Shown: positions 34,682 to 36,699, numbered from the stretch's first letter. The stretch: DNA of 47,766 nt from a virus (IMGVR_UViG_2541047895_000008:1-47766), one strand, 5' to 3'. The notes: generated by a model from the sequence alone, not told the origin. Translations and numbers: made by a program.

Positions 34682-34708
34682 GAATGCCAGGAAAAAACAA
34701 AACCCGCC
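34682..34708 (-). terminator. Rho-independent terminator downstream of hok
   Basis: aacccgc-ttcg-gcgggtt followed by ttgtttttt on the - strand. Confidence 0.65.
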
Positions 34709-34786
34709 GAAGCGGGTTACGTGCGGGTGCGTTGAGGATGCCTGACACATCAGAGGTGGCGAGGGATTTCTCCCTCGCCTGGTCTC

Positions 34787-34942
34787 TTACTCCTCAGGTT
34801 CGTAAGCAGTGAAGACAGCGACCTCCGTCTGGCCGGTTCGGATTCGTACCTCGCAGAGGTCTTTCCTCGTTACCAGTGCCGTCACAATGACGGTTAAACA
34901 GATGACGATCAGGGCGATTAACATCGCCTTTTGCTGCTTCAT
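34787..34942 (-). CDS. hokD: Hok/Gef-family type I toxin (HokD/RelF-like)
   Basis: MKQQKAMLIALIVICLTVIVTALVTRKDLCEVRIRTGQTEVAVFTAYEPEE (51 aa); AGGAG SD; structured leader upstream. Confidence 0.85.
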   Translation of the reverse strand: MKQQKAMLIALIVICLTVIVTALVTRKDLCEVRIRTGQTEVAVFTAYEPEE

Positions 34943-35641
34943 AGCCTGCTTCTCCTTGCCTTTCGGCACGTAAGAGGCTAACCTACATGTGTTCAGCATG
35001 GATTGAGCCTCAGATTAATGTTAAGCGTCTTGCAGGACGCGTAATGTTAACTGGGGCTTTTCTCTATCTGCCGTTGGTGTTCATGCCCGAGGCAGATAGC
35101 CTCAAGCACCCACAGCCATTCTACTTAACTACCGTTACCTCGCCAATATGAAATCAGTCAGAAAGGCGATCCATAAGAACAACAGCAAGGCAATAAATTG
35201 CCATTACAGCAGCAATAGCCAGCGCACATTTGAGAACAAGCACCACAACCTCCTGTATTGGACGTACACCAGTCCTGATAAATATGAGGCTGTCTCGTCA
35301 GTGATTCAATACAACTATTGGGTATAGTTTCTGTGATTTTGTTCTGTAGAAATGGAACACGACAACCAGTCACCACCAGCACTTCTTTAAATACGCCAAG
35401 TCCGACGCAAGCTAACCTTCTAGTCCGCTTTGAGCGAGAAGCGGACGTTCAATGTGATAAAGCTCAGGAACATTGTCGTTGATGATGATAAAGAGGATCA
35501 GACTAACTTAGCACTTCTCATCACGTTGATAAGGCATAGAAATTACAAACACTATTGTGAATATCGTTTTACTATAGTAAATTCAAGTAAGTTCTTTTCG
35601 TTCGTTATTACACAAAATAAAGTTCACTCTAAGGTTGAAAA

Positions 35642-36085
35642 ATGTTAGATATCAGAATGTCACGACCATCTGAAGCAGATGAGATCATACAAATCTGGAA
35701 GAGTTCAGTGGATGCTACCCACGACTTTCTTACAGGTCATGACCGACAAGAAATCGAAAAAGAAGTTGTCGGCTTTTTCTCAGAAACTCCTGTATGGGTT
35801 GCAACAAATCAGGATGACCAACCGCTAGGATTTATGTTTTTGCATAAGGGCCATCTGGAGGCACTTTTTGTAGCAGGCTCTGCTCGCGGACTTGGCGTCG
35901 GAAAACGTTTGATCTCTCATGCACTGGCACTGCATCCAGAGCTAAGCGTTGATGTAAATGAACAAAACCAGCAGGCTGTAGGGTTTTATCAGCATATGGG
36001 TTTTAAGGTATCAGGGCGTTCCGATCTGGATAATCAGGGAAGGCCATACCCCTTGTTGCATCTGAGAATGGCCAATAACATGTAA
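35642..36085 (+). CDS. GNAT N-acetyltransferase, YjaB-like
   Basis: ..WKSSVDATHDFL..PVWVA..FMFLHKGHLEALFV..RGLGVGKRLISHAL..VDVNEQNQQAVGFYQHMGFKV..GRPYPLL.. parallels E. coli YjaB as remembered. Confidence 0.7.
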   Translation: MLDIRMSRPSEADEIIQIWKSSVDATHDFLTGHDRQEIEKEVVGFFSETPVWVATNQDDQPLGFMFLHKGHLEALFVAGSARGLGVGKRLISHALALHPELSVDVNEQNQQAVGFYQHMGFKVSGRSDLDNQGRPYPLLHLRMANNM

Positions 36086-36105
36086 CCAATGTGGCAGAGA
36101 AGATA

Positions 36106-36690
36106 TCATTGATTTTTTTGGCTAAAAGCCACGATGTAAGAACAGCTCTGCTCACTATCTGGATTGCTCATTTGGTACTCGCTTGCAAAGGTAAGGGCAA
36201 GACAGTCACCGGCACGTAAATGATGGGTCTGATTTTTGACTCGAAAATCAAGGCTACCACTCATCACCCAAAGCGTTTGCCCGGAAAGATGCTCATTTGC
36301 GGAGGCGGGTATCGTCAACTCACCCATTGCAGGAATTTCAACTTTGATCAGTTCCGGGCATGCCCCCGCAGGAGACAAAGACCAACGAGTGATGCCTGAT
36401 TGCTCATCCGTCCAGTGCTGTTGCTGATGAGCAAAACGAACCAGGGAATTCTGATGTTGCTCAAGCTCTGCAAAGAGTTTAGATAGCGTTACATTCATGG
36501 CGTTGGCCAGGCGGCTAAGGATAGTTGCACTAGGGCTGGAGATGCCTCGTTCAATCTTACTAATCATGGCCTGACTGACGCCCGATCGTTGAGCAAGCTC
36601 TGTTACAGTCAAATTGCGAGCCTTCCTGTGTTTAAGCAATAAACGTGCAATATCGCTATCTACTATCTGATTTTTAGATTTTTTATCCAT
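36106..36690 (-). CDS. XRE-family HTH regulator with C-terminal cupin domain
   Basis: ..NLTVTELAQRSGVSQAMISKIERG.. HTH then cupin-like half; start set at the internal Met with SD gaggg. Confidence 0.65.
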   Translation of the reverse strand: MDKKSKNQIVDSDIARLLLKHRKARNLTVTELAQRSGVSQAMISKIERGISSPSATILSRLANAMNVTLSKLFAELEQHQNSLVRFAHQQQHWTDEQSGITRWSLSPAGACPELIKVEIPAMGELTIPASANEHLSGQTLWVMSGSLDFRVKNQTHHLRAGDCLALTFASEYQMSNPDSEQSCSYIVAFSQKNQ

Positions 36691-36699
36691 TTCAGCCCT

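Follow-up and report, generated by a model that had tools for sequence, protein, structure and literature searches.

The window analysed here, that is, the whole 47,766-nucleotide (nt) stretch IMGVR_UViG_2541047895_000008:1-47766, is a lambdoid prophage with 100% identity to Escherichia coli 2015C-4136CT1, and just upstream of its hok toxin gene it carries a small open reading frame (sORF; MLVLKCALAIAAVMAIYCLAVVLMDRLSD, 35154..35243, minus strand) of 29 sense codons. Comparison of its alleles indicates that this sORF is very probably a genuine protein-coding gene under purifying selection, and the explanation that we favour, with moderate confidence, is that it represents a new gene of Escherichia/Shigella lambdoid prophages for a small peptide of the inner membrane, which acts there as a protein. 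The initial annotation had pointed to a hok locus preceded, on the same strand, by an AGGAGG, a 5-nt spacer, a GTG and a 29-codon hydrophobic ORF, and had proposed that this ORF could be a second type I toxin-like peptide or a part of hok regulation. The ORF, its spacing and its strand hold up, with coordinates that need shifting by one base (35154..35243 in place of 35155..35244). The two proposed functions find no support in silico. Is the ORF then a gene at all? If so, what kind of gene is it, and why does it sit next to hok?

The frame opens with GTG (35243..35241), runs for 29 sense codons to 35157 and closes with TGA (35156..35154). Its Shine-Dalgarno (SD) sequence, AGGAGG, can be read directly from the sequence at 35249..35254 (minus strand), 5 nt from the start codon. 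An alternative GTG at 35246 would give a peptide of 30 amino acids (aa); it stands just 2 nt from the SD and is not present in other alleles. A GTG directly before the start is confined to the window-type allele, and the conserved form is thus that of 29 codons.

The coding status was assessed on 139 copies of the sORF, taken from E. coli chromosomes, the phages Tritos, Evi, mEp460_ev081 and HannyBb, the Shigella plasmid pWR100, E. albertii and IMG/VR contigs. All 139 keep the ORF intact, in 30 nucleotide alleles and 18 peptide alleles, and all but one allele (35 codons) keep the length of 29 codons. A minimum spanning tree of the alleles holds 46 synonymous and 41 nonsynonymous changes, a nonsynonymous-to-synonymous ratio (N/S) of 0.89 compared with 2.84 under neutrality (binomial P = 8.5e-8), and the changes are distributed 26/16/45 across the codon positions, the second positions being the least variable. 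The proposed frame is the only one of the six that is open in all 30 alleles; the other five have N/S values of 1.6-4.6 and each has stops in at least some alleles. Between diverged alleles the pairwise ratio of nonsynonymous to synonymous differences (pN/pS) is 0.13-0.4. The replacements in the peptide are conservative (V/I/A/L/M/T swaps) and the residues I16-Y17-C18-L19 are almost invariant among the peptide alleles. Mean pairwise identity rises from 72% in the 75 nt upstream to 93% in the ORF, with 93% also in the hok promoter and leader and 98% in the hok coding sequence (CDS). A length of 29 codons means nothing by itself; the sORF goes beyond chance because every copy is intact and because the bias towards synonymous and conservative changes is specific to this frame.

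Two overlapping frames were tried as genes and rejected. In the 74-codon frame at 35382..35158, every allele is interrupted by stops over the ORF region. The frame on the opposite strand (35154..35246, plus) is open in 27/30 alleles, but its N/S of 2.78 is near neutral. The latter is an annotated CDS in the HannyBb record (L004, 2911..3096) and in the RAST annotation of pWR100 (90749..91021), and both calls are probably spurious. RefSeq has nothing annotated at the sORF site, and some GenBank submitters label the sORF as 'membrane protein' or 'hypothetical protein'.

Could the sORF nevertheless be non-functional, an ORF that arose by chance in conserved non-coding DNA (promoter-proximal, at a recombination junction or within an unrecognised RNA) and hitchhikes with hok? 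The empty RefSeq annotation, a narrow taxonomic range and the lack of a called transcription start site (TSS) in Shigella flexneri M90T (see below) would all fit such an explanation, and the invariant third positions of codons 16, 17 and 19 hint at constraint on the nucleotides. It has to account, however, for the frame-specific excess of synonymous changes in the sole frame that is always open, for the low variability of second codon positions and for an ORF that is far better conserved than its upstream flank. It also has to explain why the SD and the start are conserved, with a switch from GTG to ATG on the invasion plasmid (pINV), why the ORF stays intact in contexts without hok, and why neither folding nor covariation gives an RNA-structure signal. 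We consider it very unlikely.

The signals for expression are conserved as well. Upstream of the SD lie a predicted -35 hexamer TTGAAT (35309..35304) and, after a 17-nt spacer, a predicted -10 hexamer CATATT (35286..35281), both on the minus strand, just as the initial annotation had read them. With the TSS placed 7 nt past the -10, near 35274, the predicted 5' untranslated region (35244..35274) would be a leader of ~31 nt. In 9/9 divergent copies the -35 (as TTGA[AG][TG]), the 17-nt spacer and CATATT are found in the same place while the spacer sequence varies, and TTGAA is retained in most of the 139 copies. The -10 CATATT is almost invariant over 37 distinct upstream haplotypes, in a region where, as given above, mean identity is low. 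The SD is present as AGGAGG, GGGAGG or AGGAGA, with the 5-nt spacing fixed, in almost all copies, and the start codon is GTG in all of them except pINV (ATG). The leader bears a mostly conserved GT(A/G)TACGTC motif; a LexA box and an IHF site were considered for the leader by eye, and the spacing is unfit for them.

Several points weigh against a functional gene expressed from this promoter. In 17/139 copies TCTCAT replaces the -35 and the ORF is still kept; these copies raise the possibility of a weak or dispensable promoter, with expression perhaps relying on phage early read-through. The differential RNA sequencing TSS table of S. flexneri M90T (PMC7132871 Table S3), searched by coordinate and by sequence, has no TSS called where the pINV allele on pWR100 has its predicted sORF promoter; on the minus strand of this plasmid the TSSs closest to it are 91318, upstream, and 90726/90709, for icsP. 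The third positions of ATT TAT ... CTT (codons 16, 17 and 19) are invariant too, and for this reason constraint at the nucleic-acid level is possible at codons 16-19. The changes counted on the allele tree are partly non-independent owing to recombination. Expression of the sORF is argued from sequence comparison, and the function that we propose for the peptide is a guess by analogy.

Two side observations concern these promoter variants and the M90T map. In the 17 copies with the altered -35 (IMG/VR loci among L015-L142, with haplotypes such as ATAGTTGTATCTCATCAATGATGAGA at the positions of window 35309..35290), the -35 region TTGAATCA reads TCTCATCA, which together with TGATGAGA downstream of it makes up a perfect 8+8 palindrome; the variant, to all appearances a quasi-palindrome (template-switch) mutation, should abolish the -35. 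In M90T, the minus-strand TSS at 91318, classed as 'novel', could read through the pINV sORF.

What sort of protein would this be? The 29-aa peptide is strongly hydrophobic, with a grand average of hydropathy of 1.81 and a favourable 19-residue insertion score, and AlphaFold2 predicts one continuous helix over residues 2-29 with a predicted local distance difference test score of 91.8. Lys5 is on the N-terminal side and an acidic tail (D25-R-L-S-D29) on the C-terminal side, a charge distribution that suggests an N-in/C-out topology in the inner membrane. Searches of the peptide in Pfam (E <= 10), NCBIfam, PHROGs and PADLOC gave no meaningful match; sub-threshold hits to ATP synthase c and CoxIIa were set aside as due to hydrophobic composition. 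When 1.8 billion representatives were searched exhaustively with phmmer, nine close relatives were all that came up, most of them with spurious N-terminal extensions, and as far as this sequence search reaches the peptide appears to have no distant family. The peptide is also unreported in the literature searched: the hokW-sokW paper (PMC8621323) and a 2025 survey of Hok are silent on an upstream ORF, and a preprint on the Pas small RNAs (sRNAs) only mentions the Sok near PasA.

One likeness is with the small single-pass inner-membrane proteins of E. coli, such as AcrZ, MgtS, MgrB, PmrR, KdpF and CydX, which are a class and not a homologous family. Like them, the sORF encodes about 30 aa forming a single helix, is an independent SD-driven 'intergenic' ORF that annotation pipelines have missed, and is conserved at the amino-acid level; unlike them, it is carried by prophages and pINV and not by the core genome, and it is homologous to none of them. 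A second likeness is with prophage morons and with small membrane proteins that serve superinfection exclusion or host modulation, as the sORF is a self-contained cassette of promoter and gene between phage modules and adjoins a slot with defence-like cargo (SIR2, KwaB-like, QueH, AAA+HNH, GNAT). The cassette differs from morons in having no dedicated terminator, and its peptide has no PADLOC match. The sORF belongs, then, to a known kind (small single-pass membrane proteins, prophage morons) but to no described family, and it is a well-supported addition to the under-counted small membrane proteins borne by prophages.

How does the cassette travel? It measures ~190 bp and consists of the sigma-70-like promoter, the ~31-nt leader, the strong SD, the GTG and the ORF. 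Upstream of about -45 there are at least four unrelated sequence classes, and recombination limits are found near -45 and just past the stop. Three downstream contexts are seen. In the first, hok follows at 192-216 nt (121/129 assessable copies). In the second, a DUF1971 gene lies on the other strand with a junction ~10 nt past the stop, an arrangement that occurs with two different sORF alleles. In the third, on pINV, the hok promoter and ~75 nt of its leader are followed by AT-rich DNA and icsP. Eight copies keep an intact sORF without hok. Conversely, in many hokD loci a QueH, HNH endonuclease or alpha/beta hydrolase gene has taken the place of all but the final 6-9 codons of the sORF, with promoter, leader and CDS of hok still intact, and among the 78 phage records with this Hok just 4 carry the sORF. 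These cargo replacements, the 4/78 phages and the hok-less copies together argue that the sORF is probably ancestral at the junction, dispensable for hok, as judged from these natural variants, and able to survive without it. The cassette is present in 1730/5426 complete E. coli genomes (~32%), on 143 plasmid records (124 labelled Shigella) and in 228 IMG/VR stretches, and among species representatives it occurs only in Escherichia and Shigella. Its carriers include the functional temperate phages Tritos, Evi, mEp460 and HannyBb, and it lies upstream of icsP on the invasion plasmid of Shigella and enteroinvasive E. coli.

The type I toxin proposal deserves a closer look. It would make the sORF product a membrane-damaging peptide restrained by its own antisense or partly complementary RNA, and several features speak for it. 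The peptide resembles type I toxins (Hok/Gef, TisB, ZorO, DinQ, ShoB, Ibs) in being tiny, very hydrophobic, with one predicted helix and a short charged tail, and its size, hydrophobicity and single helix are like those of TisB, ZorO, DinQ and the transmembrane half of Hok. Its ORF is equipped with an SD of its own, is part of a mobile element and adjoins a bona fide type I locus within a prophage. In addition, the GTG start and an invariant pairing of the SD, in the leader, with CCUUUCUG, at the 3' end of the ORF, could mean translational restraint; this pairing has 7 bp, no compensatory changes and two A-C mismatches. In sequence the peptide shows no similarity to these toxins, a degenerate Hok paralog was rejected as BLASTP against Hok gave no alignment at E <= 100, and the toxin-family comparison suggested by the initial annotation, run against Hok, Pfam, NCBIfam, PHROG and Rfam, returned no match.

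The RNA side fares no better. No conserved reverse-strand promoter exists in the nine divergent copies, and because the contexts share no related sequence upstream of -45, the cassette is not accompanied by a divergent sRNA gene. Complementary stretches of at least 11 nt elsewhere in the 47.8-kb window number 0, against 2.9 expected by chance. Pairing of Sok with the sORF is no better than with shuffled sequences, 71% of which score equally well. Most type I toxin mRNAs have long structured leaders; that of the sORF is just ~31 nt, folding of its mRNA gives z = -1.42, with a covariation term of -0.99 kcal/mol, and no Rfam family covers the ORF region. Finally, intact copies persist where both hok and sok are gone. 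A cis-antisense RNA, a trans-encoded complementary RNA in the window and Sok as a shared antitoxin were thereby rejected in silico, and a second type I toxin is, in our estimate, an unlikely identity for the sORF.

Is the sORF then a device for regulating hok? It might do so by promoter occlusion, by giving rise to a 5'-extended hok mRNA that folds differently, or through a peptide that binds Hok. The linkage is indeed tight and fixed at the distance given above for 121/129 copies. In the window the distance from the last codon of the sORF to the ATG of hok is 215 nt (the initial annotation had estimated about 210 nt) and the stop is 7 nt from the hok -35. The window sequence has no terminator between sORF and hok, which makes read-through into hok likely, and a 3' remnant of the sORF is kept in hok loci that miss the rest. 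The natural variants speak differently. Where cargo replaces the sORF in hokD-type loci, hok keeps its promoter, leader and CDS; 74/78 phage records with this Hok lack the sORF; the characterized hokW-sokW system has been described without such an ORF (PMC8621323); and the sORF exists without hok in the eight copies mentioned. One Hok allele occurs with nearly all sORF alleles, that is, the two do not co-vary; selection acts on the amino acids of the sORF, for which a device working purely through transcription or translation would have no use; and adjacency alone can account for the linkage. A regulatory role for the sORF is thus improbable.

The hok mRNA has its 5' end near 35111, and the sORF is very likely outside this mRNA and independent of it, ending 7 nt before the hok -35, in agreement with the initial annotation, which had treated the ORF as separate. 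That the ORF might fall inside the hok leader and lack conservation, as had also been considered, is not what was found: it lies outside the leader and is conserved. Transcripts from the sORF promoter probably run through hok and end at the hok terminator. A comparison with mok is useful here. The mok frame is located inside the hok mRNA, overlaps hok and matters via its translation. The sORF resembles it as a short frame upstream of hok on the same strand, and differs in being outside the hok mRNA, in not overlapping hok and in having a peptide sequence under selection.

One further possibility takes the peptide seriously as a protein and still ties it to hok or to killing. The peptide could be a protein-level partner of Hok, or a prophage membrane toxin that has no antitoxin, its source being either an mRNA that extends into hok or, on induction or superinfection, read-through of phage early transcription. 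We hold this to be a long shot of about the same rank as hok regulation. If true, the peptide would potentiate or antagonise pore formation by Hok, in the manner of holins and antiholins, or would act alone as an effector of abortive infection or lysis timing, and sORF and hok would form a two-peptide membrane module of a kind undescribed for any hok locus.

How would the preferred small inner-membrane peptide gene work? The predicted sigma-70-like promoter would be active, and the peptide would be made at a low level, given the GTG start and the imperfect -10. The transcript would read through into hok. The single transmembrane helix would insert N-in/C-out, and by analogy with the small membrane proteins named above and with prophage morons the peptide may modulate a membrane component or mildly perturb the membrane, and would not be a killer controlled by an RNA antitoxin. 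The sORF adjoins a toxin locus that is among the most thoroughly studied, and work on hokD/hokW-type systems could have missed both this additional peptide of the membrane and, possibly, a hok transcript with a 5' extension.

The neighbouring hok locus, on the same minus strand as the sORF with both hok and mok, is complete, with hok, mok, a Sok candidate and tac/fbi. The initial annotation had called the Hok peptide and its structured leader clear, and both are borne out. The hok CDS (34787..34942, minus, 51 aa) is of HokD type, matching Pfam PF01848 HOK_GEF with 82.9 bits (cut-off 22) and RefSeq WP_000813254.1 (HokD), and the leader (35111..34937, minus) matches Rfam RF01794, the 'sok' model that covers the hok leader, with 113.5 bits (gathering score 59). 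The hok promoter TTGGCG-17-TAGAAT (35118..35146, minus) has 9/12 matches in a consensus scan, begins 7 nt past the sORF stop and is conserved in all hok-linked copies. The mRNA, of ~419 nt, spans 34693..35111 (minus), with tac at its 5' end and an intrinsic terminator at the other, which is a hairpin (34718..34701, minus) followed by a T run. The tac element GGGUGCUUGAGGC (35099..35111, minus) pairs with fbi in minimum free energy and centroid folds, and fbi CCUCAACGCACCC (34725..34737, minus) is complementary to it; in the fold of 35111..34693 the first ~12 nt pair with 34737..34725 (z = -7.45).

Neither mok nor sok had been delimited before, and both can now be placed, sok as a candidate. 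The mok frame of 70 codons (34787..34999, minus) overlaps hok and holds the whole HOK_GEF match in frame, and homologous phage loci carry a mok/mokW annotation. On the plus strand, a predicted Sok promoter TTGCCT-17-TAACCT (34956..34984), read from the sequence, is placed and oriented as in known hok/sok systems. The predicted Sok antisense RNA of ~70 nt would extend over about 34991..35062 (plus). Around the mok ATG (34999..34997) this candidate matches the hok leader with full complementarity, and it carries a strong hairpin of the terminator type (-31.6 kcal/mol, z = -5.2) with CUUUUCU after it.

In K-12, hokD has neither its own promoter nor a sok region. The window hok is of the same type as Qin hokD/relF and as hokW-sokW of the Stx2 prophage Sp5 (PMC8621323), and has mok, a Sok candidate and tac/fbi; its product is 92% identical to the characterized HokW (Sp5; VT2-Sakai/933W) described in the same paper. 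In contrast with the window, hokW-sokW and hokD/relF were described without an upstream small ORF, 933W and VT2-Sakai have no sORF, and HokW has a different place in the phage genome.

Two minor features of the hok mRNA were also noted. The Tyr46 codon of Hok, TAC (34804..34802, minus), lies in UUACGAA (34799..34805, minus), which is like the anticodon loop of tRNA-Arg(ACG) recognised by TadA, and a 2025 preprint reports that hokD-type mRNAs are A-to-I edited to Cys46 (10.1101/2025.08.07.668861). From this TadA-like context and the reported editing, the prophage hok probably needs editing for full toxicity. At the 3' end, the stretch 34697..34778 (minus) has a weak match to Rfam isrK, an sRNA of the Salmonella Gifsy-1 prophage (27.8 bits, gathering score 50, E = 0.0025). 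Both 3' hairpins of the hok mRNA and its terminator fall within this match, which probably amounts to no more than a hairpin-plus-terminator resemblance.

The gene order around the locus is replication module, DUF977, IS110, a helix-turn-helix (HTH) protein, a GNAT acetyltransferase (opposite strand), the sORF region, hokD, a 92-aa ORF, DUF968, RusA and Q. The cassette sits at the border between a variable cargo slot and hok/mok/sok, in the early-right (nin-like) region of Escherichia/Shigella lambdoid prophages. The slot extends from DUF977 to the sORF/hok junction (~35430..38300) and its cargo varies among prophages: GNAT acetyltransferase, HTH protein and IS110 in the window; SIR2, QueH, KwaB-like, AAA ATPase + HNH endonuclease or alpha/beta hydrolase in others; and, in phage Tritos, an ORF of 1.3 kb. 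Such variety resembles that of a hotspot for defence genes and morons, with the sORF as its right-hand boundary, and precise mosaic boundaries are now available for this cargo hotspot of lambdoid prophages.

Some individual copies of the sORF are of interest in their own right. In the 35-aa allele (five copies: L006, L099-L102; four of them with hok 204 nt downstream) an 11-nt deletion removes the stop and adds WRGRGS, and the hok -35 falls within the coding region. On pWR100 (L003, NZ_CP037924.1 90750..91030) a fossil of the prophage module, ~130-420 bp upstream of the icsP start, retains the intact ATG-start sORF, the hok promoter and the first ~75 nt of the hok leader, with hok, mok and sok deleted. 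In NZ_CP027550.1 the RefSeq locus tag RS07895 is missing between C6950_RS07900 and C6950_RS07890, exactly at the sORF site; an earlier annotation round may have called a feature there that was then removed. Three contigs of 2.6-3.3 kb with the sORF (L010, L012, L013) come from metagenome-assembled genomes labelled Collinsella, 'Candidatus Scatousia' and Haemophilus, and are almost certainly pieces of E. coli prophages that were binned wrongly.

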